Below, piece by piece: positions 8,058-20,909 of a stretch of 64,000 nucleotides of DNA; within the stretch, counting starts at the first letter, position 1; the number at the start of each line of letters is the position of its first letter. Below the pieces are notes generated by a model that did no database searches, had not been told where the DNA came from, and saw only the letters and a program-made list of their open reading frames with translations. A program made the translations under genes and the position numbers. The stretch is from Bacteroidota bacterium (GTDB lineage Bacteria > Bacteroidota > Bacteroidia > Bacteroidales > SZUA-534): the NCBI GenBank assembly GCA_003250355.1, contig QKGS01000040.1, positions 2,812 through 66,811 on the forward strand, in the 5' to 3' direction.

Positions 8058-9134
8058 ATGTTTAAGAATAAGTTTTTTATACTGGCATTATTGCTTATTA
8101 CTACTGTAATGGCATGTGACAATATGAGTTCAAAAAAGAATAAACTGAGCTACAAGTATGGAGGAACGCTAAGGGTTAATGCTACTTCGGAACCCGACAT
8201 GATATTTCCCGGTCAGGTGAATAAATCGAGTGAACATCTTATTGTTAGTCAGGCTTACGATGGGTTGGTTAAGTATCACCCCAGAACATTTGATATAGTA
8301 CCTTCTCTTGCGAAACGATGGCTTGAAGAAAGAAACGGAACTATTTATACATTCTATATGAGCGACAATGCTTATTTCCATAAAGATAAAGTGTTTAAAA
8401 ATAAACAAGAGCGTAAAATAACAGCCGTTGATGTTAAAAATTCAATAGAACAAATAGCAAAAACATATCGTATGTTGGAGCAACCAATACCTAAGCATAT
8501 TATGAATATCAAAGGAGCCGAAGAGCTGTTGAACGATAAAATACATAACGATTCTATACACGTTAGTGGTATAGAGGTATTTGACGATACTACCCTGATA
8601 TTTTACTTGAATGAGGCCGATAACTTGTTTTTACACTTTCTTGCAGGAACCGATGCCTTGGTTTTTTCAAAAAAAGCATTCGATGCATATGGGTTTAAAA
8701 GCACTGTTGGTTCAGGAGCATTTACTTATGAGTATTTCAATAAAGTTTCAGACCATTTAATATTACTTGCAAATAAAGAATATTATGGAATAAATAAACA
8801 AGGAGAAAGACTACCGTTCCTCGATTCTATTGTAGTTTCGTTTGTCACATCTACCACTAGTGAAATAGAATTACTCAATGATAACAAAATTGATATGGTG
8901 CTTGGATTGCCGGAAAAATACGTAACACCATTTCTTGATAATAATATTGAATTGTTTCAGCAAAATCCACCTTTCTTTGTTTTAAAGCAAAGTCATGATT
9001 TTGAAACTAGGAAAGAATACAATATTTTACGTTCCAATATTCATGGTTTTGAGTTAAACTCTCAAAATTACTTCGATTTTTCAGAAACATTTAAAAAAGA
9101 CCCTGAACCGGAAGAAGTGCTTACTGTCGAGTAA
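8058..9134 (+). CDS. Short family 5 ABC solute-binding-like lipoprotein
   Basis: Lipobox VMAC; YGGTLRV, YDGLV...IVPSLA..W...YTF, GSGAF, LPFLDSIV motifs; only 358 aa. Confidence 0.8.
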   Translation: MFKNKFFILALLLITTVMACDNMSSKKNKLSYKYGGTLRVNATSEPDMIFPGQVNKSSEHLIVSQAYDGLVKYHPRTFDIVPSLAKRWLEERNGTIYTFYMSDNAYFHKDKVFKNKQERKITAVDVKNSIEQIAKTYRMLEQPIPKHIMNIKGAEELLNDKIHNDSIHVSGIEVFDDTTLIFYLNEADNLFLHFLAGTDALVFSKKAFDAYGFKSTVGSGAFTYEYFNKVSDHLILLANKEYYGINKQGERLPFLDSIVVSFVTSTTSEIELLNDNKIDMVLGLPEKYVTPFLDNNIELFQQNPPFFVLKQSHDFETRKEYNILRSNIHGFELNSQNYFDFSETFKKDPEPEEVLTVE

Positions 9135-9251: not shown

Positions 9252-11408
9252 TTATCTTACAATTGTAACAGATAAACTTGATCCGTCGTTGAACAAAAGT
9301 ACGTATAGTCCGGTTGGTAACGGCGAACCGTCAAGATTGTTGGTTGTTATGTTTGCAGGCAATTCGATTTCATATATAACTTTACCTGCTTCGTTAACAA
9401 GTTTTGCTCTCCCTTTTCCTTCAACATAATATGTTGATGTTCCACCAGGTACATTATCGTATAGAATAGCATCGCACGTGCCGGTTTGTTTGAGTTGTAG
9501 GTTACTCTGAATTATCATTTCGCAACCTTCGCTATCAGATAATTTAATAGTATAAATTCCATGATTAAGTTCAGTATTTACCAAAGCAGTAAGTGTATCT
9601 GTAACGCCTGTATAATCATTTACAGCTAAAACATTATATACATAATTATTAGGAGCACTGTTTTCATTAAAATGGAATAGTGTTTTTTTGCAGTCAGACT
9701 TATAGTTGGTTGTTATATCAACCTGATTGATACAATTACATTCAGGAATAACAGGGGCATTAGTTAACAGAATACTGTCGTAGCAAAAAAGCCCTTGTTT
9801 AACGAACAGATAGTTTTCTCCACTTTCAATAGTGTACTTTCCATTTTCAGAAATCACATTAGAATTAATATAGTATTCAGGTAATGATAAAGAATAACTA
9901 AATTCAACACTATTTATTTCAACCTCTGTTTTATTGCAGTTTTCAATTATATCAAAATCTGCATTATCTATAACCGGGTAAGCATTTATAGAAATAACAG
10001 TATCAAAATAGAATTCACAGCCGCTATTGTTAGAATACAGCACTTTATAATTGCCGGGCATAACCGGGTATTTTGTTGCATTTATTATTTGATTTCTGTT
10101 ATTCAGGCTGTCGGCTAAATATGGCGTAACCCAATCGCCCGAAAGTCCTTTGTAAGTAATATCATTGAACTGAACAATATATCCGGAATTGCAATTAAAA
10201 TCAACTGTAAAATTTAGAACATCAGCTTCAATACATTCACATACAGGATACTCAGGTATTGTAACAGTAGTATCAAATAATGTAGAGCAACTGTTATTAT
10301 TTGTTATCTGAACTTTGTATATTCCCGGATTTATGGGATACGTATTATTAGTATTTACTTCGTGTAAAATATTCCCATCACTATCTAATAAATTATAAAT
10401 GAAGCTATAATTAGGCATTAAGGTGTCGTAGCTTATGTTTAATTCAGAAAAGTTAATGGTATATTTTTGAGTGCAGTCGAAATTTATTTCAAAACTCAAA
10501 GTGTTGCCTGCCGGACAGTCATAAGCATATATATATGTTTCGCCAGATAAAATAGTTTTATTAGTCCATACACCTAAGTTTTTTGCAAAAGATGCAACTT
10601 CATAGATAGAGTAGTTTTCTATTATGCTATCAATGGTAATAATTTTATTATTAGATATTTCAACAACACTATCCCACAGATTGTGTGAAAACCAGCGATA
10701 CCATACATAATCAGAGCCAAGGGTATCGGGATATTCTATAGTAATACTTTCTCCCTTATATATATGACACCATTTATCATTAGTAATCTCTTTTTGAGGG
10801 AAGCAATTGAAAATAGTATTATACCCGGGAATACCTGCTAACCTCCTTATTTCAGGCCAGTTGAGTTTATTTTCGCGTAATGTAACAGAGTCTAAGTTGG
10901 GTAGTTGACTGAAATCAGGAAGCTGTGTTAAATAATTATTGTCTGCATTTATAAGGCTAAGATTTGGGTTAGCCCCAAATTCAGGTATACTTTTTATTAA
11001 GTTGTTGCGAAAATCAATTGTGGTAAGTGTTGTTAAATCAGACACATCGGGAGCTTTTGTAAGTCGGTTGTGATTAAGGAATATATATTCAATATTGTTA
11101 AAACCTGTGAGCTTTGGGAATGATGATAGTTTATTCCCATCTGCTATTATCCCTTTTGAATTTTTAAAATACTGTATCTCATTAATATTTGTAACACCGG
11201 TATTGTTTAAATAGAATATGCCATTAAAGTTTTTAGCTTCTACGGTATCTAATTTTCCCAATTCAGGGCTTGCGGCAGATATATTATTAAAAATATAACG
11301 GGCAAATATAGTATCGCTAATATTGATAGTTTGTGCTTTAATAACGCCCGATATCAATAAAGCAATCAATACTCCAATAACTTTTATATGTATATTTTTG
11401 AATATCAT
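9252..11408 (-). CDS. LRR protein with Cys-containing SprB-like repeats and divergent T9SS type B (CHU_C-like) C-terminal domain
   Basis: N-terminal LxxLxLxxNxL repeats; repeats YPINPGIYKV...C / YPVMPGNYKV...C; C-terminus GKVIY...DGSPLPTGLY...VTIVR. Confidence 0.78.
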   Translation of the reverse strand: MIFKNIHIKVIGVLIALLISGVIKAQTINISDTIFARYIFNNISAASPELGKLDTVEAKNFNGIFYLNNTGVTNINEIQYFKNSKGIIADGNKLSSFPKLTGFNNIEYIFLNHNRLTKAPDVSDLTTLTTIDFRNNLIKSIPEFGANPNLSLINADNNYLTQLPDFSQLPNLDSVTLRENKLNWPEIRRLAGIPGYNTIFNCFPQKEITNDKWCHIYKGESITIEYPDTLGSDYVWYRWFSHNLWDSVVEISNNKIITIDSIIENYSIYEVASFAKNLGVWTNKTILSGETYIYAYDCPAGNTLSFEINFDCTQKYTINFSELNISYDTLMPNYSFIYNLLDSDGNILHEVNTNNTYPINPGIYKVQITNNNSCSTLFDTTVTIPEYPVCECIEADVLNFTVDFNCNSGYIVQFNDITYKGLSGDWVTPYLADSLNNRNQIINATKYPVMPGNYKVLYSNNSGCEFYFDTVISINAYPVIDNADFDIIENCNKTEVEINSVEFSYSLSLPEYYINSNVISENGKYTIESGENYLFVKQGLFCYDSILLTNAPVIPECNCINQVDITTNYKSDCKKTLFHFNENSAPNNYVYNVLAVNDYTGVTDTLTALVNTELNHGIYTIKLSDSEGCEMIIQSNLQLKQTGTCDAILYDNVPGGTSTYYVEGKGRAKLVNEAGKVIYEIELPANITTNNLDGSPLPTGLYVLLFNDGSSLSVTIVR

Positions 11409-12445
11409 CGTTCTAATATAGTAATGCCTTTAATACACTTATCGCCATTTTGGTACAACACGATGATTTTATATAATCCCATAGGTAAATATTCGCCGTT
11501 GTTGTTGGTTCCTTCCCACAATAACTTTTCGCCTAGGTAGAAGTTACGTTTGTATACCTCTTTCATTGTTTCGCTATATACTATTATACTACCTGCCGAC
11601 AAAGCCGATGAAGTTATTGTTATTTGTTCATTGTATGAAGGCTCATAAGTTTCAGGAACAGTAAAATCGCAACCATTTTTCTCAACTTCACTGTTCCAAT
11701 TATTATCAGAACTCTCTTTGTGAGTTATTTCATCGGTTTGAGTTACAGGTTTAGTTGTTTTCTTTTGTTCAACAACATTTTTTTCTCCATTAGCTTCACT
11801 TTTCTTTATTTCGGACTGTTTTTCATTATCAACATTAGGTAATGCAACTATTGTTGTTTTACTTTCATTGGTCTTACTATCCACATCAGCATTGGCTTTT
11901 GGTTCAGGCTTTTGCTCTTTTGTTCTTTCAGGCAAGCTGTCCAATTCTTTTTGTGGGTTGTTTTCAATATTATTCTTAGGTGTGTCATTTTCACCTCCGT
12001 TTTTATTTTTTAAGGAATTAACATCATTCAATTCAGTATTATCGGTATTGTTTTTCTCAATTGCAGTAATTGAGTCAGTGCTATTAATTACCGGTTTTTC
12101 TATAGTTGTTTCATTTGTTTTATTGGGCAGAGTTTCATTTTTACTGTTATTGTTGAATACAAAATAAAGAGCCGTTCCGGCAACAACAGCAGTTGCAACA
12201 GTTACTACTTTTTTGTATAATTTTTTTGCCTTTGCTTGTTTAGCATATCCTTTAGCTGCCTGTTTAAAATTAATAAGTTCGTTCTCTTCAAGTAACACCT
12301 TTGCAGCCCTGAATGTCTCAAGGTGTTCGGCAACTTCCGGATTGCTGTTAACCTCATCGAACAGCAATGATGCTTCGTCATTAGGCAGCTCTCTGCGCAG
12401 ATACCTGAAAAGGTTATTATATATATTTTGTAAATCGCCGGTCAT
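11405..12445 (-). CDS. Putative membrane-anchored anti-sigma factor with C-terminal T9SS type B-like domain
   Basis: N-terminal RYLRRELPNDE...V..N.E anti-sigma-like helices, one TM helix, long N/E/K/T-rich linker, then WEGTNNNGEYLPMGLY...GITILER. Overlaps the sigma gene. Confidence 0.65.
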   Translation of the reverse strand: MTGDLQNIYNNLFRYLRRELPNDEASLLFDEVNSNPEVAEHLETFRAAKVLLEENELINFKQAAKGYAKQAKAKKLYKKVVTVATAVVAGTALYFVFNNNSKNETLPNKTNETTIEKPVINSTDSITAIEKNNTDNTELNDVNSLKNKNGGENDTPKNNIENNPQKELDSLPERTKEQKPEPKANADVDSKTNESKTTIVALPNVDNEKQSEIKKSEANGEKNVVEQKKTTKPVTQTDEITHKESSDNNWNSEVEKNGCDFTVPETYEPSYNEQITITSSALSAGSIIVYSETMKEVYKRNFYLGEKLLWEGTNNNGEYLPMGLYKIIVLYQNGDKCIKGITILER

Positions 12446-13013
12446 AGTCTATAAATATTGTTCTTAGGTCACTCTCATTTTGCAAAAGCTTAACAAGTTT
12501 TTCTTTGCATCGGCTTTTTATTATTTTTACTACTCCTTCGTTAGCAAAGCCATATTCTTCGGCTATATCTTTGTACTTCTGTTCTTGAAACAAAATGGCT
12601 TTAAATACATTAGCGCATTTTTCGCCAAGCATTTCAAATACTTTTTTTATTGTATTCTCTTTTTCATTTACAGTAGTCTGATAATTAATATCTTCGTCCC
12701 ATTCTCCGTTTTCTTCATATCCTTCAAAAGCTTCCGACTTACTGTCGCGTTTCACTTTATTTATCCACAAATTCCGGCATACTATAAATAAAAAACTGTT
12801 TATATTTTCATTTTTATCAAAACTGCCGTTTCTTATTTTTCGAACCAGTATAACCATGGCATCTTGAAAAACGTCTTGAATATCGTCAGAATTGGCACCC
12901 TGCTTTTTCAATGTGCGCTCTATTCCGGGATATGCATTCTTGTATAAAGTAGCTATTACTTTCCTGTCGTTTTTGTCAAGAATGGACTGAACTATTTTAT
13001 CTTCGTACTTCAT
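12417..13013 (-). CDS. ECF sigma-70 family RNA polymerase sigma factor
   Basis: DIQDVFQDAM, FLFIVCRNLWIN (region 2); LGEKC...YKDIAEEYG...SRCKEKL (region 4). Confidence 0.92.
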   Translation of the reverse strand: MKYEDKIVQSILDKNDRKVIATLYKNAYPGIERTLKKQGANSDDIQDVFQDAMVILVRKIRNGSFDKNENINSFLFIVCRNLWINKVKRDSKSEAFEGYEENGEWDEDINYQTTVNEKENTIKKVFEMLGEKCANVFKAILFQEQKYKDIAEEYGFANEGVVKIIKSRCKEKLVKLLQNESDLRTIFIDYDRRFTKYI

Positions 13014-13048
13014 TTTGCTTTAATTACAATCGCACTTATAAATGGTTA

Positions 13049-13915
13049 TCACTTTTTACTGTAAAAAATTAATCCTGCCTGAACCGACGAGGTGTTGTAT
13101 CGGAATTCAAATACACCGGTTTGTATTTGGTAACCAATATACGCTTCTACAACCGATTTTCTATGCCAGTTGTATTCAAATCCCACGCTGGTAAAAAAAT
13201 CGCCGTCGGTATTAAAACTTGCACCGGCCATAATTTTTTCTTTGAATATGGTTTTTGTCCCTGCCGACAATTGAGTGTAATACTCGGAATATACATCGAG
13301 TCGGCCGTATCCGTAGCCGCTCCATTTTTTATCTCTTGTTTTATAATTTCGTAATATAAGAGCTTGAAAAAAACGGGGCAGGTATGTTTCTTCATAAAAT
13401 GGCGATAACTTTGGCCGGGTAATTTGGTTTATGGTAATATTTATTGTGTTTCTTTTGTCGTAATAAGCCAACGCAATACTGCCGTCGGCTTTAGTGTCTG
13501 AGCCGCTGGGGCCTCCGGTATTATTGGCAATGGAGTAATTAACCAATCCTACCGATACTCCCCCTGCTATTTGTTGCTTTTTGTTCAGTGGTATATGTAC
13601 AGCATAGTTAATATAAGCACGATCTCTTTTTATAAACTTACCCTTTCGGTTAGCTATGGCATTTATACCAATATTAGTATTGCGAAATGAATACTGCCCA
13701 TTCATTTGCAACGAGCGTATTTCTTTAAATAAACCTGTTCTTTGTTTTGCAAATGTACTTGCTTTAAAGTCTTGTTTGTTAGGGCTTTCCAAATAATCGG
13801 CAAGCGATGGCACCATTGTATTACGGGCAATTATATCTTCGGGGTATAACGAAAAGTTTTGAGCAATTGCAGTTGCACAAATTATTGTGAAATATATTGT
13901 AAATACTTGTTTCAA
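13049..13915 (-). CDS. PorP/SprF-like T9SS outer-membrane barrel protein
   Basis: 288 aa with signal peptide and alternating beta strands; PorP-like P....(RQ.TG)...YINYAVHIPL...GVSVG pattern; upstream of type B CTD cargo. Confidence 0.65.
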   Translation of the reverse strand: MKQVFTIYFTIICATAIAQNFSLYPEDIIARNTMVPSLADYLESPNKQDFKASTFAKQRTGLFKEIRSLQMNGQYSFRNTNIGINAIANRKGKFIKRDRAYINYAVHIPLNKKQQIAGGVSVGLVNYSIANNTGGPSGSDTKADGSIALAYYDKRNTINITINQITRPKLSPFYEETYLPRFFQALILRNYKTRDKKWSGYGYGRLDVYSEYYTQLSAGTKTIFKEKIMAGASFNTDGDFFTSVGFEYNWHRKSVVEAYIGYQIQTGVFEFRYNTSSVQAGLIFYSKK

Positions 13916-14092: not shown

Positions 14093-15304
14093 ATGAAAAC
14101 AAGGCTATTGCTTTTTTCTCTATTATTTAGTCTGTCGGCATTGGCTGCAACAGTTGAAAAACCTGAATATCACTATTCGGCATCGTGCATGAAATCAAAC
14201 TGTGTTATTTCAAAGCCACAAATATTATTTGTAGGCGATTCGCTTTATATATATGACTGTGTATCTGCAAACTGTTGTGCAAACTTTGAACTTAATGTTT
14301 CAGAACCGGTGAATGACACACTTACTGTAACATTTACTGACACTGCTTCATTGCTTTGTACCTGTAGTTGCGATTTTAGTGTTACTATAAATGCCGGTAA
14401 AATAGCATCGAAAGATATTGTTGTTCAATACAGCGGAGAGTCATATCCGATGAATGCTAAAGCAATACTTCCTATAATTGAGAAAGGGAAAACGTGGAAT
14501 GTTGAAACTATCAATATGGCTATGGGGCCGTTACCGGTTACAGCTCAATATATGGTTGAACCAAATTCAGAGCGTCCATTTTGTTGGAATGGATTATTTT
14601 ATACTAAAATCAGTAAAAGCCATCTTATAGCATTAAAATCGGGAAGCCTTAATAACGAGGCGGTTTACATTAGAGAGTACAATGGAAAGGTTTACTATAT
14701 GGATGATACAACTCAGTGCCGCGAGATATTGATTTACGATTTTACGCTCAATAAAGGCGATTCAGTAACAGTTGGCGACTCTAATGATTATTTAAGTCAT
14801 TTAAAGGTTGATTCGGTTAATTATATTCAGTACAATGATGGCGTAAGCAGAAAAACTATGTACCTGTCGGGCGATGGCAATAAAATATGGATAGAAGGAA
14901 TTGGCGATACTAATTCACCTTTTTATTATTGGTTACCATTACCAAATAAAAGATGCAAATGTGGTGATAGTTCGTACGAAAAGCTGATTTGTTGCTCAGT
15001 AAATGATAAGTTGATATACCGGACTCCCGGGTATTACAGCTGTGTAATAATATCATCGGCTACCGATTTTAATTATAGCTTTAGTATTTATCCAAATCCG
15101 GCAAGTAGCTATTTAAACGTTGAAAGTACGGTATATACAGGGGTAAGTTATACTATAACCGATCTTTCAGGCAATATAGTGCAAAAAGGAAATTTGTCAG
15201 ACGAAATAAATATTAACATACCCGACGGAATGTACTTTATATCATTATCAGATGATAAAGGTATTATTGGAGCAGAGAAAATTTTAATAGAAGGGTGCAA
15301 GTAG
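14093..15304 (+). CDS. Cys-rich secreted protein with T9SS type A sorting domain
   Basis: Signal peptide; NCC...CTCSC module; YDFTLNKGD...WIEGIG domain; IYPNPA...GMYFI...KILI C-terminus. Confidence 0.85.
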   Translation: MKTRLLLFSLLFSLSALAATVEKPEYHYSASCMKSNCVISKPQILFVGDSLYIYDCVSANCCANFELNVSEPVNDTLTVTFTDTASLLCTCSCDFSVTINAGKIASKDIVVQYSGESYPMNAKAILPIIEKGKTWNVETINMAMGPLPVTAQYMVEPNSERPFCWNGLFYTKISKSHLIALKSGSLNNEAVYIREYNGKVYYMDDTTQCREILIYDFTLNKGDSVTVGDSNDYLSHLKVDSVNYIQYNDGVSRKTMYLSGDGNKIWIEGIGDTNSPFYYWLPLPNKRCKCGDSSYEKLICCSVNDKLIYRTPGYYSCVIISSATDFNYSFSIYPNPASSYLNVESTVYTGVSYTITDLSGNIVQKGNLSDEININIPDGMYFISLSDDKGIIGAEKILIEGCK

Positions 15305-17192: not shown

Positions 17193-20100
17193 ATGAAACA
17201 AATATTAACAGGTATATTATTATTACTTTTTGCCGGTAGCAATTTATATTCTACCAATTTTATCCCTTTTGAGCGGCTTGAATCGCACGAGGGGTTAAGT
17301 CTTGTAAAGGATATATACCGCGACGATAACGACTTTCTGTGGATAGCAACCGATGGGTTTGGTCTTAAGCGTTACGATTCGTACCAAATGAAAAGCTTTG
17401 TTCATAACCCCAATGATCTGTTAAGCTTATCGAACGATAATGTTACCAAAATATTTGAAGACAGCCGTAAGAATCTATGGGTTGCAACATTTTCGGGTTT
17501 AGACCTTTTTAACCGCAAAACTGAAAAATTCCATAATTATTTGAACTTTGAAGGGCGATCAACCGATTTTACAAGCCAGTATGTAAATGATATAGTTGAA
17601 GATAATTATGGAAGGCTTTGGATAGCTTCGGGAAACGGTTTGTATGAATACCGATATGCTGAAGACACAATGGTATTCTACAAATTGCCATTTGAAGACC
17701 CAAGACTTAGTAATTTAAAGAACCTTTCGCTCGATAAAGACGGAAATATCTGGATTTCATCAATTGCACCAACAGTTTGTAAATTTATACCTGAATCACA
17801 GAAATTTGAGATATTTGAATTTGAAGAGTTATTAAACTTTACAATTACCTCAACAAGTGTATTAGTTGACAGCGACAACAAAGTTTGGTTAGGATTTGGT
17901 GGTTTTGGTTTAGCGATATTTGACCCTGTAACGGGTAAAACTAACTATGTAAGAAAGGACGAGAATGGCAAAGGATTGTCTAATGTTCTTGTAATGAGTA
18001 TTGAAGAGTTTTATCAGGGGAAAATATATATTGCAACCGATCAGGGAGGTATCAATATTTTTGATAAGCAAACCAATAAGTTTACATATATAAACTCAAA
18101 AAATAAAAATGCCGGGAATCTTTCATCCGACGGAATATATTGTCTTTATAGAGATAGAGAAGGGATACTTTGGGTAGGAACTTCGCGCGGCGGGATAAAT
18201 TTTTATAATCCAAAAAAGCATCGGTTCAACAATATGTTGGAAGCAAATAATATAAAAAGTTATTTTAGCAAAGGGGCAAATATTACACACGGTGTAGTTG
18301 GTACATTTTTAGAAGATACCAAAGGGAATATTTGGATAGGTACTAATGGAGGAGGATTAAACAAATATAACCCCAAAACGGGAGATGTTAAAATATATAC
18401 TACCCGCAATTCCGGATTAAGCACCGATATTATTGCCCGCCTGAGTGAAGATTCTAACGGCGATATATTAATAGCTACATGGCCCGAGGCGGTTCATAAA
18501 TTAATAGTAAAAGAAGACCGCATTATTCAGCTTAACTTTATAAGCAACTATAAAGTAGGTTTTGTACATAATATACTTTGGTCTGTTATGGTAGATAAGA
18601 AAGACCGAATATGGATTGACTTTTCTGAAGGACATGTAATAGTGTTAGATAAAAACAGGAATGAAATTGCAAAGCGTATTATTACTCCCGATCCGGTACA
18701 TTATTTCAACGAATCGGGTTATATTAAGGAGGTTGACAAATACTACAACAATAATCCGGAAGGTATATTTTGGCTCAATGAAGCGACAATGGAATTTGAG
18801 CCATTTATTGAACGTGGCGACATATTTTGTTTTAAACGCGATAGTAGGGGAAATTACTGGACAGGAACTTTAAAAAGCGGTGCTTTCTGTTATAACAATA
18901 AGGGGGAATTACTTTTTTCATTAAATACCGATAATGGCTTGTCGAATAATACGGTTTATGCTATTGAAACATCAGACGAAGGGGCTGTTTGGTTAGCAAC
19001 GAATAACGGACTAAATGAGTTTTCTTATTCCGATTCTACAATATTCAGCTATTATGAATCGGACGGGTTGCAAAGCAATCAGTATTTTATGCAGGCTTCA
19101 CTTAAAACACGCAACGGGCAAATATTTTTTGGAGGCACTGAAGGCATTGACTATTTCTACCCCAAAGAGATACAGCGAAACAATTTCCTTCCCAAAGTAC
19201 ATTTGAACGAAATGCTTATAAGAAACAATAGTGGCGAAGAACAAAATGTACTTAGTGCGAATAGAGATACGGCTGATATTATCAGGCTTAGCTGGAATGA
19301 GAATAGAATTGTATTCAAGTATTTTGCCATTAACTATACCTTTCAGGAAAAAACCAGATACAAGTATAAACTTGCAGGTATTGACACCGACGAGTGGATA
19401 ATAACCGGTTTGCGACAAGCTACTTATACCAACTTAAAGCCCGGCAAATATACTTTTAGTGTAATGGCTTCCAATAACGATGGAATATGGAATAATGAAG
19501 TGGCGGAGATAAGTTTTGCAATAGAAGCACCATTTTGGCTACGAATATGGTTTTATTTTGTTTGTGTTTTAGTATTGGCATTTTTTGTTTATTTATCTAT
19601 GCAGTGGAGAGAGCGTTCTTTAATTCGCGATAAGGAAAACCTTAGAAGAAATGTTCAGGAACGCACCCGTGTTATTGAGGCTCAGAAAGAAGAACTGGTG
19701 CGACACCGCAATGAGCTTAATATGCATAAAGAGAAGCTTGAAGATTTAGTAAAAGAGCGTACTAAAGAGCTTGAAGAGGCAAAAATAAAGGCTGAGAACT
19801 CTGATCGTTTAAAGTCGCATTTCCTTGCTAACTTGTCGCATGAAATACGTACTCCAATGAACGCAATAGTTGGCTTTTCAACATTGCTTAAAGACCCTCA
19901 ATTTGAAAAAGAAGAGAAAAGAAGTTTCATTGACACCATTATCGACAATTCAAACTCTCTAATGGTATTGATAGAAGATATTCTCGACTTTTCACTCATT
20001 GAAGCCGGACAGCTAAGAATAAATATTGAGAGTTTCAGTATTATAGAATTGATTAAAGATGTTCATTCTACACATAGTATTAATGCAGCTTTAAAGCAAA

Positions 20101-20909
20101 TAAATCTGAAAATAGTAAATGAGCTTAGCGAAGATTTAGAAATAAAATCGGACAAATATCGAATACGTCAGATACTTAATAATTTGGTAAGTAATGCTAT
20201 TAAATTCACCAATGAAGGAACTATAAATATAGGAGTAAAGCTCGACGACGACATATTGAAAATGTATGTTCAGGATTCGGGTATAGGTATTGATGAAAAG
20301 CAAAAGGAATATATATTCGGACAGTTTGTAAAGCTTGACCGCGACCAAACATCAAAACGAGGAATAGGACTAGGCTTGGCTATTAGCCGCAGGTTATCGA
20401 AACTGCTTGGCGGAAGCTTAACCGTAGAATCGGTTCCGGGTACAGGTTCTACTTTTGTGCTGGCTATTCCTATTGAATATATTAAGGTTGATAAAAAACA
20501 ACAGGCGAAAGAGATAAAAAAAATAAACGAAAAGCCCGACTGGAATGGTAAACGAGTTTTGATAGTTGAAGACGAAGAGGATAATTATGTGTATTTACAA
20601 ACTATATTATTGAAAACAAATGCACATATTACCATTGCAAAAGATGGGTTGGAAGCTGTAGAAATATTTAAAGCAAACAATAATTTTGACTTGGTGCTTA
20701 TGGATATAAAAATGCCCCGAATGAATGGGTATGAAGCCATGAGACAGATTAAAGCTATAAATCCCAATCAGATAATAGTAGCTCAAACCGCTTATGCTCA
20801 ACCAAACGATGAAATAAAAATACGGGAACAAGGTTTCACAAATTATATAAGTAAACCAATAAGACCGAATGCTCTATTTGACTTATTGAGTTTATATTTC
20901 AATTCTTAA
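17193..20909 (+). CDS. Hybrid sensor histidine kinase (Reg_prop propellers, Y_Y_Y, TM, HisKA, HATPase, REC)
   Basis: Repeated ED..G.LWIAT..GL blades, YTNLKPGKYTF.V.ASN, SHEIRTPMN, NAIKFT, GIGLGLAI, DLVLMDIKMP. No AraC HTH. Confidence 0.95.
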   Translation: MKQILTGILLLLFAGSNLYSTNFIPFERLESHEGLSLVKDIYRDDNDFLWIATDGFGLKRYDSYQMKSFVHNPNDLLSLSNDNVTKIFEDSRKNLWVATFSGLDLFNRKTEKFHNYLNFEGRSTDFTSQYVNDIVEDNYGRLWIASGNGLYEYRYAEDTMVFYKLPFEDPRLSNLKNLSLDKDGNIWISSIAPTVCKFIPESQKFEIFEFEELLNFTITSTSVLVDSDNKVWLGFGGFGLAIFDPVTGKTNYVRKDENGKGLSNVLVMSIEEFYQGKIYIATDQGGINIFDKQTNKFTYINSKNKNAGNLSSDGIYCLYRDREGILWVGTSRGGINFYNPKKHRFNNMLEANNIKSYFSKGANITHGVVGTFLEDTKGNIWIGTNGGGLNKYNPKTGDVKIYTTRNSGLSTDIIARLSEDSNGDILIATWPEAVHKLIVKEDRIIQLNFISNYKVGFVHNILWSVMVDKKDRIWIDFSEGHVIVLDKNRNEIAKRIITPDPVHYFNESGYIKEVDKYYNNNPEGIFWLNEATMEFEPFIERGDIFCFKRDSRGNYWTGTLKSGAFCYNNKGELLFSLNTDNGLSNNTVYAIETSDEGAVWLATNNGLNEFSYSDSTIFSYYESDGLQSNQYFMQASLKTRNGQIFFGGTEGIDYFYPKEIQRNNFLPKVHLNEMLIRNNSGEEQNVLSANRDTADIIRLSWNENRIVFKYFAINYTFQEKTRYKYKLAGIDTDEWIITGLRQATYTNLKPGKYTFSVMASNNDGIWNNEVAEISFAIEAPFWLRIWFYFVCVLVLAFFVYLSMQWRERSLIRDKENLRRNVQERTRVIEAQKEELVRHRNELNMHKEKLEDLVKERTKELEEAKIKAENSDRLKSHFLANLSHEIRTPMNAIVGFSTLLKDPQFEKEEKRSFIDTIIDNSNSLMVLIEDILDFSLIEAGQLRINIESFSIIELIKDVHSTHSINAALKQINLKIVNELSEDLEIKSDKYRIRQILNNLVSNAIKFTNEGTINIGVKLDDDILKMYVQDSGIGIDEKQKEYIFGQFVKLDRDQTSKRGIGLGLAISRRLSKLLGGSLTVESVPGTGSTFVLAIPIEYIKVDKKQQAKEIKKINEKPDWNGKRVLIVEDEEDNYVYLQTILLKTNAHITIAKDGLEAVEIFKANNNFDLVLMDIKMPRMNGYEAMRQIKAINPNQIIVAQTAYAQPNDEIKIREQGFTNYISKPIRPNALFDLLSLYFNS

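Follow-up and report, generated by a model that had tools for sequence, protein, structure and literature searches.

A candidate anti-sigma factor ending in a type B-like T9SS sorting domain, conserved beside a dedicated PorP/SprF-family barrel in Bacteroidales

The gene cluster described here lies in a stretch of 64,000 nucleotides from a member of the Bacteroidales (Bacteroidota bacterium, assembly GCA_003250355.1, contig QKGS01000040.1, positions 2,812 to 66,811), which is called the window throughout and whose coordinates are used for all positions. Four minus-strand open reading frames (ORFs) follow one another head to tail and encode an outer-membrane barrel, an extracytoplasmic function (ECF) sigma factor, a protein with a single transmembrane segment (the TM protein) and a leucine-rich repeat (LRR) protein (Table 1). 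The genes are tightly packed: the TM protein gene overlaps the sigma factor gene by 29 bp (12417-12445), and the tetranucleotide ATGA, read directly from the sequence, is shared by the stop codon of the TM protein and the start codon of the LRR gene. The ORF coordinates agree with an earlier note, made from the sequence of the window, which had described a four-gene array with these two overlaps, and confirm that the architecture is real. The genome also encodes a type IX secretion system (T9SS), as judged from SprA (2441 bits) and GldM (370 bits), and its sorting domains above cut-off number about 89 for type A and 5 for type B. The focus of this text is the TM protein, whose gene context points to an anti-sigma factor and whose C-terminal domain resembles the type B sorting domains by which T9SS cargo is recognised.

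Table 1. Features of the four-gene cluster, with their positions in the window and the evidence on which each call is based.
Feature	Position	Strand	Basis
Divergent PorP/SprF-family outer-membrane barrel, 288 aa, TTG start, signal peptide	13049..13915	-	PF11751, AF2 model
Promoter-like element GATAAC-N16-TGTAAT, directly upstream of sigma, overlapping the barrel stop codon	13023..13050	-	Comparison of window and L100
ECF sigma factor, 198 aa	12417..13013	-	TIGR02937, Sigma70_r2
TM protein, 346 aa	11405..12445	-	ORF list
Anti-sigma-like cytoplasmic N-terminal domain, residues 1-78	12212..12445	-	AF2 helices, domain HMM
Transmembrane segment, about residues 79-98	12152..12211	-	Sequence, AF2 helix 85-97
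Low-complexity periplasmic tether of ~160 aa, residues 99-258	11672..12151	-	pLDDT
Type B-like T9SS sorting domain, residues 259-346	11408..11671	-	hhalign, VIA-align
LRR and Ig-like-repeat surface cargo, 718 aa, signal peptide	9252..11408	-	LRR_4
Divergent C-terminal sorting domain of the LRR protein, last ~95 aa	9255-9539	-	hhalign

The TM protein ends in a compact beta-sandwich, which comprises residues from about 260 to 346 in an AlphaFold2 (AF2) model built on six homologues and reaches a predicted local distance difference test score (pLDDT) of about 80. The earlier note had called this domain type B-like, and the call is borne out by profile-profile comparison with hhalign, for which 9 anti-sigma domains, 10 bona fide type B domains, 19 type A domains and 5 domains of cargo proteins from related modules were assembled. 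The anti-sigma domains match type B at 98.7% (E-value 2e-16, 84 columns) and type A at 76%, which has to be read against the 87% between type B and type A, the background relation of the two classes. For the window-type subset (the window itself, P0002 and L100, a locus in a Bacteroidales metagenome-assembled genome), the values are 96.9% for type B versus 1.0% for type A. In the alignments, the anti-sigma domains keep the W-x-G, G-x-Y and terminal G-x-(I/V)-T-(I/L) blocks. Within the genome, the best non-self match to the C-terminal domain is a 208-aa protein (E 6.9e-6) which is itself a true TIGR04131 member (52 versus a cut-off of 35), and in a profile search of the whole library, the part of the family profile from position 239 to 379 is matched by the very C-terminal ends of giant SprB-repeat proteins, with seven full-length family representatives among the best 150 matches. 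A SprB repeat also precedes the C-terminal domain in most relatives of the TM protein and is absent in the window, L100 and P0002. Judged from these comparisons, the assignment of the domain to the type B T9SS sorting domains, and not to type A, holds.

The fold is consistent with this assignment. When the sandwich was compared with VIA-align, the C-terminal domain (CTD) of PorU was matched at Z 9.2 (root-mean-square deviation, rmsd, 2.2; 79 residues aligned) and that of PorZ at Z 8.8, followed by the CTDs of the substrates NucA, FspA and RemA at Z 7.1-7.9, together with many unrelated immunoglobulin (Ig)-like domains at Z 7-8. A Foldseek search of the anti-sigma model against the PDB returned generic Ig-like matches only, none of them below E 1e-3. 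Because unrelated Ig-like domains score in the same range and Foldseek gave no significant match, the fold alone cannot settle that this is a sorting domain.

At its other end, the TM protein starts with a small helical domain. The AF2 model places four helices at residues 3-16, 22-34, 36-54 and 58-73, followed by a hydrophobic one at 85-97, while residues 56-258 have a pLDDT below 50 and correspond to the low-complexity linker, a disordered stretch of ~160 aa that is present in all homologues and whose sequence is not conserved. The protein is without a cleavable signal peptide: a 78-aa helical domain before the single helix is the arrangement of a signal-anchor, and the lysine-rich flank KQAKAKKLYKK ahead of the helix suggests, by the positive-inside rule, that the N-terminus faces the cytoplasm. 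A hidden Markov model (HMM) of the N-terminal 100 residues matches the protein adjoining the sigma factor in 26 of 29 loci, the 29 being the closest relatives of the sigma factor in the order and 4 of the 26 matched loci having served to train the model. The same domain occurs in loci L022-L050, mostly in proteins of 240-270 aa and in some of 487 and 506 aa, with unrelated C-termini. These proteins thus look like members of an extensive anti-sigma family of the Bacteroidales in which the sensor end can be exchanged, and it is from this gene context that the TM protein is probably the anti-sigma factor of the neighbouring sigma factor, as which we refer to it below.

Comparisons of the N-terminal domain with described families gave the following picture. 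The zinc-finger model zf-HC2 matches 4 of 19 N-termini, at best with E 0.083, and the N-terminal domain, which contains no cysteine, does not have the zinc motif H-x3-C-x2-C. Orthologues matched NF010501 (E 0.005) and NF052375 (E 0.024), both below cut-off, and Pfam and NCBIfam scans found no FecR domain in the TM protein. In the structural comparison with VIA-align, the cytoplasmic domains of the anti-sigma factors MucA (Z 7.6, rmsd 4.1, 67 residues aligned) and RsiW (Z 7.5, rmsd 10.2) are the only helical matches within the top 50 rows, at values that lie in the noise range for helical models.

The association of these genes is conserved beyond the window. In L100, barrel, sigma factor, anti-sigma factor and a 1172-aa LRR-like cargo follow in the same collinear order, with phmmer scores of 259, 332, 191 and 489 bits, respectively. 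In a sample at the level of the order, the module was found in 6 of 401 genomes including that of the window (G000); in the other five (G285, G270, G372, G153 and G148, in the last of which contig ends divide the module), a PorP/SprF-family gene is divergent from the sigma/anti-sigma pair. A second sampling of 77 genomes from one family, here f8, gave a full-length anti-sigma factor, always in one copy, in 29 of them. The sigma factor gene lies directly upstream in 26 of these 29 loci and the barrel gene is divergent in 25, the misses being due to contig ends and one partial barrel. When the same 77 genomes were searched with a profile of the barrel subfamily, 28 had both barrel and anti-sigma factor, one had the anti-sigma factor only (on a contig of 2.4 kb), none had the barrel only and 48 had neither. 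The survey of synteny that the earlier note had proposed therefore returned a conserved link between barrel, sigma factor and anti-sigma factor with near-perfect co-occurrence. In a phylum-level sample of 401 genomes, in each of which four candidates were scored, both domains of the TM protein were found in one ORF only in that genome, and a scan of metagenome contigs with the window protein found no relative. As a single observation, the barrel match at G796:C1:2378814-2379422 (L104) covers profile positions 4-205 within a 537-aa frame beside an intact sigma/anti-sigma pair; this barrel could be truncated or fused.

The barrel is a divergent subfamily of PorP/SprF, in agreement with the earlier note, which had described it as PorP/SprF-like. 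It matches PF11751 (PorP_SprF) with 48.7 bits, above the cut-off of 22.3, and TIGR03519 with 46, below the cut-off of 90.55, and among the eight PF11751 matches in the genome it scores lowest. Its AF2 model has 14 strands (pLDDT 74; predicted template modelling score, pTM, 0.69), and a Foldseek search with this model retrieved FadL (E 3e-8) and the T9SS complex chain 8gl6_F (E 1e-5). Neither the profile scan nor the model gives the barrel a plug or an N-terminal extension. A comparison of C-terminal tails was made with reference to SprF, in which twin cysteines of the C-tail are reported to couple the carrier to the moving track (PMC12635249). A basic tail bearing cysteine is absent from the barrels of the window, L100 and L013-L016; most of the module barrels compared stop at or near the last predicted strand, and one has a cysteine 11 residues from its end. 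Four of the seven canonical PorP/SprF paralogues of the genome (C30:114090-115088, C75:60840-61826, C94:46148-47173 and C36:2-850) do have a basic tail with cysteine; these tails carry a single cysteine (for example ...PCPEF and ...PCPKM), as opposed to the Cys-x-Cys described for SprF.

The sigma factor is unambiguous by the curated models, as the earlier note had it: TIGR02937 is matched at residues 21-176 with 61.5 versus a cut-off of 42.9 and Sigma70_r2 with 31 versus 24, and its orthologues in other module loci score 99-113 bits. ECF sigma factors usually regulate themselves, and for this reason the conserved motifs described next are read as promoters of the sigma factor of the module. 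In the f8 loci, the motif GGTTAC-N16-TG(T/A)A is found by regular expression upstream of the sigma factor in 21 of 25 intergenic regions. A position weight matrix (PWM) finds one site of at least 18 bits, upstream of the sigma factor, in 25 of 29 f8 loci; the motif was picked by eye and the PWM built on 19 of the sites, so that there is some circularity in these counts. Sites outside the training set score as well, namely those of L079, L080, L081 and L094 (29.9-33.0 bits), of G148, which belongs to another family (29.7 bits), and of G285 (14.8 bits). A second site, on the strand of the barrel gene and between its end and the next gene, occurs in 16 of 19 extended loci (14.8-35.0 bits at a threshold of at least 14) and likewise in all four 16-kb loci (15.6-26.1 bits). 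Across 20 extended f8 loci, only one further site of at least 14 bits was found, also upstream of a downstream gene, and no such site lies upstream of any barrel.

Applied to the window, the f8 PWM gave seven sites of at least 4 bits, the best of which (9.5 bits) lies elsewhere and none of which lies at the operon; as a consequence, a candidate picked by eye was re-examined against L100. The 44 bases ahead of the sigma factor start are almost identical between the window and L100 (AAAAGTGATAACC...CGATTGTAATT) and contain the element listed in Table 1, which parallels the GGTTAC-N16-TGTAG of the f8 module type; GATAAC-N16-TGTAA is found once in the 3.7-Mb genome, at this upstream region. The conserved block lies after the barrel stop codon in the window and inside the barrel ORF, in another frame, in L100. 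The L100 barrel ORF is 13 codons longer than that of the window and crosses the promoter-like block (L100:5380-5432), a one-base difference ahead of the block shifting the barrel frame. The window-type and the f8-type layout thus both have a putative sigma-dependent promoter after the barrel and before sigma factor, anti-sigma factor and cargo. Apart from its own operon, the sigma factor appears to control cargo genes only, which would leave the barrel outside its regulon.

The fourth gene of the window operon encodes a candidate cargo. The LRR protein matches LRR_4 with 35.1 versus a cut-off of 27, and the last ~105 aa align with CHU_C-bearing cargo of other modules. By hhalign, its C-terminus matches the cargo of the other module type at 97.9%, and it matches type B directly at 32.9% and type A at 53.2%; the cargo domains of the other module type in turn match type B at 97.6%. 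The domain is therefore ambiguous when compared directly and ties to type B only via its relatives in other modules. An assignment of the LRR protein to type A cargo was also weighed, and is left undecided by scores below cut-off (Por_Secre_tail 22.5 versus 27; TIGR04183 19.8 versus 23) next to the 97.9% to type B-like module cargo. The earlier note had pointed to a likeness between the C-termini of the anti-sigma factor and the LRR protein. The motifs it quoted are literally present in both, but the similarity is weak and not significant by itself: hhalign gives 17.7% over 16 columns, and when each C-terminus was searched with phmmer against every ORF of the genome, the other was not retrieved.

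Cargo genes of similar kind are found in the f8 loci. The barrel is present in 19 of the 20 extended loci and is followed by a protein with a type A CTD or by one of 330-370 aa without a match; then, in 18 of the 19, comes a protein of 406-537 aa whose C-terminal domain matches the module-cargo profile with 102-144 bits. Two module cargo proteins reach the CHU_C cut-off (29.0 and 30.3 versus 27). In most f8 modules (L105-L120), a type A protein of 580-1050 aa stands between the barrel and the type B-like cargo. It lies directly behind the second motif, and the predicted regulon would for this reason mix both classes of cargo.

A physical contact between the barrel and the sorting-like domain of the anti-sigma factor was addressed by complex prediction, as suggested by the earlier note. 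Residues 20-288 of the barrel and 256-346 of the anti-sigma factor were used, with alignments of our own, which makes the calibration only rough. The complex scored 0.52 (runs 0.58, 0.52 and 0.50), against 0.00 for the best control. That mark is reached by 116 of 157 solved complexes and by 2 of 215 mismatches. At least 70% of the contacts are common to the runs, the pLDDT of the partner is at least 72, and scores of at most 0.60 came from only 18 of the 157 solved complexes and from both of the passing mismatches. The prediction thus passes against its controls and lends weak support to a contact of barrel and domain.

Based on these observations, we propose that the genes make up a conserved, self-contained Bacteroidales module of a dedicated barrel, an ECF sigma factor, a tethered anti-sigma factor and at least one T9SS cargo, one cargo of the module carrying a matching, divergent type B-like sorting domain. 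The cargo-like domain of the anti-sigma factor would reach the outer membrane and engage the dedicated barrel, or the T9SS route, in the way the domain of the cargo does. Whether the carrier is free, occupied or export-competent would in this way be signalled through the envelope to the sigma factor, and cargo would be made in step with the capacity of the carrier or of secretion, a scheme that would work like cell-surface signalling of the Fec type built from parts of the T9SS. Trans-envelope signalling by engagement of the dedicated carrier or the T9SS route is the reading that we favour, at a confidence that we would put at about even. The release of the sigma factor and its control by engagement of the domain are what we infer, and the sequence is compatible with a free carrier as the on-state, with an occupied carrier as the on-state and with export of the FlgM type.

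Several results weigh against this reading. The C-terminal domain of the window protein stays below the curated cut-off for CHU_C (17.8 versus 27) and FlgD_ig (18.6 versus 27) and has no TIGR04131 match at E<=1; its orthologues reach 21.0-27.6 with CHU_C, where only that of G153 attains the cut-off (27.6 versus 27), and 17.1-18.5 with TIGR04131 (cut-off 35). The direct search of the C-terminus with these models, which the earlier note had proposed, did not place the domain. The anti-sigma domains have a degenerate version of the first block, which in canonical type B domains is N-x-D-G-x-N-D-like, and all five type B motifs (A-E) are reported to be needed for secretion of SprB (PMC12618676). 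The domain is also no closer to the domain of its own cargo than to generic type B. As for the N-terminus, the anti-sigma identity rests on context: the earlier claim of an anti-sigma factor stood as regards the position beside the sigma factor and the shared N-terminal domain, but the TM protein matches no anti-sigma model of Pfam or NCBIfam, and a search of PDB sequences with the N-terminal profile returned no anti-sigma factor, the best match being an unrelated Nif11 protein (E 0.0037). The genomes of the one family are kin, so that the co-occurrence counts overstate independence. The f8 PWM fails to find sites in the window, where the promoter rests on a comparison of two sequences. The score of the complex falls in a band that is more often wrong than right unless there is a good prior. 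Finally, the known carriers encounter sorting domains at the translocon or past it, perhaps out of reach for a protein tethered in the inner membrane.

One alternative is a periplasmic sensor that does not engage the T9SS. A borrowed Ig-like fold would sense unsecreted cargo or envelope stress, and the barrel would merely serve the regulated cargo. Such a sensor would be in keeping with a generic beta-sandwich that FlgD_ig scores as well as CHU_C does and for which Foldseek offers no match below E 1e-3, and there is a precedent in PorA, whose sorting domain is reported to signal in the periplasm without needing the T9SS (PMC12152298). It would leave without explanation, however, that in 77 genomes the barrel subfamily never occurs without the anti-sigma factor, that the barrel remains adjacent even where the cargo sits in the sigma factor operon, that the profiles point to type B in particular and not to type A and that the complex prediction passed, if weakly, next to controls at 0.00. 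We regard a sensor of this kind as rather unlikely.

The checkpoint conceptually like FlgM/FliA that the earlier note had put forward differs from the favoured reading in its final step: the T9SS would thread or pull the sorting domain, and the anti-sigma factor would be cleaved or extracted, so that the sigma factor is freed only when the route works. All facts that speak for engagement of the carrier apply here too, and the disordered tether of ~160 aa, present in all homologues and free to vary in sequence, speaks for it as well, as does a barrel outside the sigma regulon, which would be present before induction. Against threading stands that the module gives no sign of cleavage sites or of a site-1 or site-2 protease. 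Moreover, the first type B block is degenerate, yet export of SprB is reported to need every one of the five motifs (PMC12618676), and the module barrels are devoid of the cysteine C-tail that is described as coupling SprF to the track (PMC12635249), which leaves no obvious source of a pulling force. In our estimate, this mechanism is unlikely.

A stronger form of engagement would make the anti-sigma factor a true T9SS substrate that cannot leave, its sorting domain passing the translocon to the private carrier; we consider this distinctly improbable. If true, one polypeptide would span cytoplasm, inner membrane, periplasm and outer membrane, and competition by cargo for the carrier, or the force of the secretion motor, would set the amount of sigma factor that is freed. 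The module would then be a secretion-coupled mechanical or occupancy sensor that meters adhesin to anchoring sites. Least probable is that the TM protein is not an anti-sigma factor and instead a membrane-anchored T9SS accessory or cargo that shares the sigma factor operon, as its N-terminus, matching no curated anti-sigma family and no solved anti-sigma factor, might suggest, since its start overlaps the sigma factor gene, its N-terminal domain is the one that, joined to a variety of C-termini, adjoins related sigma genes in 26 of 29 loci, the ~78 residues before the membrane helix are unlike a signal peptide and MucA and RsiW are, weakly, its only helical matches in the top 50 rows of VIA-align.

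Three further genes of the window lie close to the cluster. The ORF at 14093-15304 (+), divergent from the barrel gene, encodes a protein of 403 aa; its type A sorting domain is clear (Por_Secre_tail 37 bits, TIGR04183 37.3), it has a signal peptide, and it is thus another T9SS cargo that adjoins the module. Further on, 17193-20909 (+) encodes a protein of 1238 aa with a signal sequence, a long N-terminal region and one membrane helix, which by eye resembles a hybrid sensor kinase, with histidine-kinase-like and receiver-like sequence after the membrane helix. On the other side, 8058-9134 (+) encodes a 358-aa SBP_bac_5 protein (85.8 bits) that covers profile positions 2-193 of 368 and is short for this family.

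The proposed module can be compared with several known systems. FecI-FecR-FecA and the Bacteroides trios of ECF sigma factor, anti-sigma factor and SusC-like protein represent cell-surface signalling. Like the module, they combine an ECF sigma factor with a dedicated, co-encoded barrel and with an anti-sigma factor that crosses the membrane once and has its C-terminal domain in the periplasm, and in both the output genes are part of the same transport route. In Fec-type systems, the barrel is a TonB-dependent transducer with an N-terminal signalling extension and the periplasmic domain is of the FecR type, whereas the module has a 14-strand carrier of the PorP/SprF family and a T9SS type B-like sorting domain in these places, and its barrel, unlike that of the Fec type, would lie outside the control of sigma-type promoters. 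Dma, the dual-membrane anti-sigma factors (PMC10927553), are likewise anti-sigma factors of Bacteroidota for ECF sigma factors that link inner and outer membrane. They carry a C-terminal outer-membrane domain of their own, whereas the polypeptide of the module ends in a 90-aa beta-sandwich and the barrel is a separate ORF, on which the soluble sorting domain, in contrast to Dma, would have to dock.

A regulatory role of a T9SS sorting domain that ends at an ECF sigma factor is known from Porphyromonas gingivalis, where the sorting domain acts as regulatory ligand in the PorA-PorY-PorX-SigP pathway (PMC12152298; PMC7712824) and where PorA is reported to signal even when tethered to the inner membrane (PMC12152298). 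As a free cargo of type A, PorA binds a histidine kinase, and the genes under its control are those of T9SS components; in the module, by contrast, the domain is type B-like, forms part of the anti-sigma factor and goes together with a PorP-like barrel, and the regulon predicted for the module is its own cargo.

Proteins with type B sorting domains are reported to bind cognate PorP-like proteins, the pairs of cargo and carrier being SprB-SprF, PG1035-PorP and Fjoh_3952-Fjoh_3951 (PMC9143113; PMC12618676). As in these pairs, a protein of the module has a type B domain at its C-terminus and a dedicated PorP/SprF-family gene next to its own, and the SprB repeat before the domain in most module relatives is found in the same place at the C-terminus of SprB-like adhesins. 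In contrast to SprB-type cargo, the anti-sigma factor has a cytoplasmic domain and a membrane anchor instead of a cleavable signal peptide. The barrel gene precedes or diverges from its partners, whereas it comes after the cargo gene in SprB-SprF-type pairs, and its product, unlike SprF, has no cysteine tail. FlgM, which is soluble and exported whole, forms with FliA a secretion checkpoint. The likeness to FlgM-FliA is one of concept, in that an anti-sigma factor would be recognised by a secretion machine; there is no homology, and export in the module is a proposal.

Searches of the literature, in which subscription journals were not covered, returned no description of an anti-sigma factor that carries a T9SS sorting domain, which suggests that the design is unpublished; the published ones that come closest are Fec-type signalling, the Dma anti-sigma factors (PMC10927553) and PorA. 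We see in the module a variant of trans-envelope ECF signalling. The source is an uncultured environmental bacterium, and no medical bearing is seen. Of the ways in which Bacteroidota match the output of cargo to the capacity of the T9SS and its specialised PorP/SprF carriers, a single case has been studied, PorA-PorXY-SigP, which relies on a two-component system and on a type A cargo that is free. The module described here would wire a type B domain into an anti-sigma factor that is kept with a private carrier and a private cargo, and the layout of its promoters gives clear, testable predictions. If the domain does dock on the carrier, the module would represent a new class of trans-envelope signalling made from secretion parts and a natural tool with which the recognition between carriers and sorting domains may be studied.

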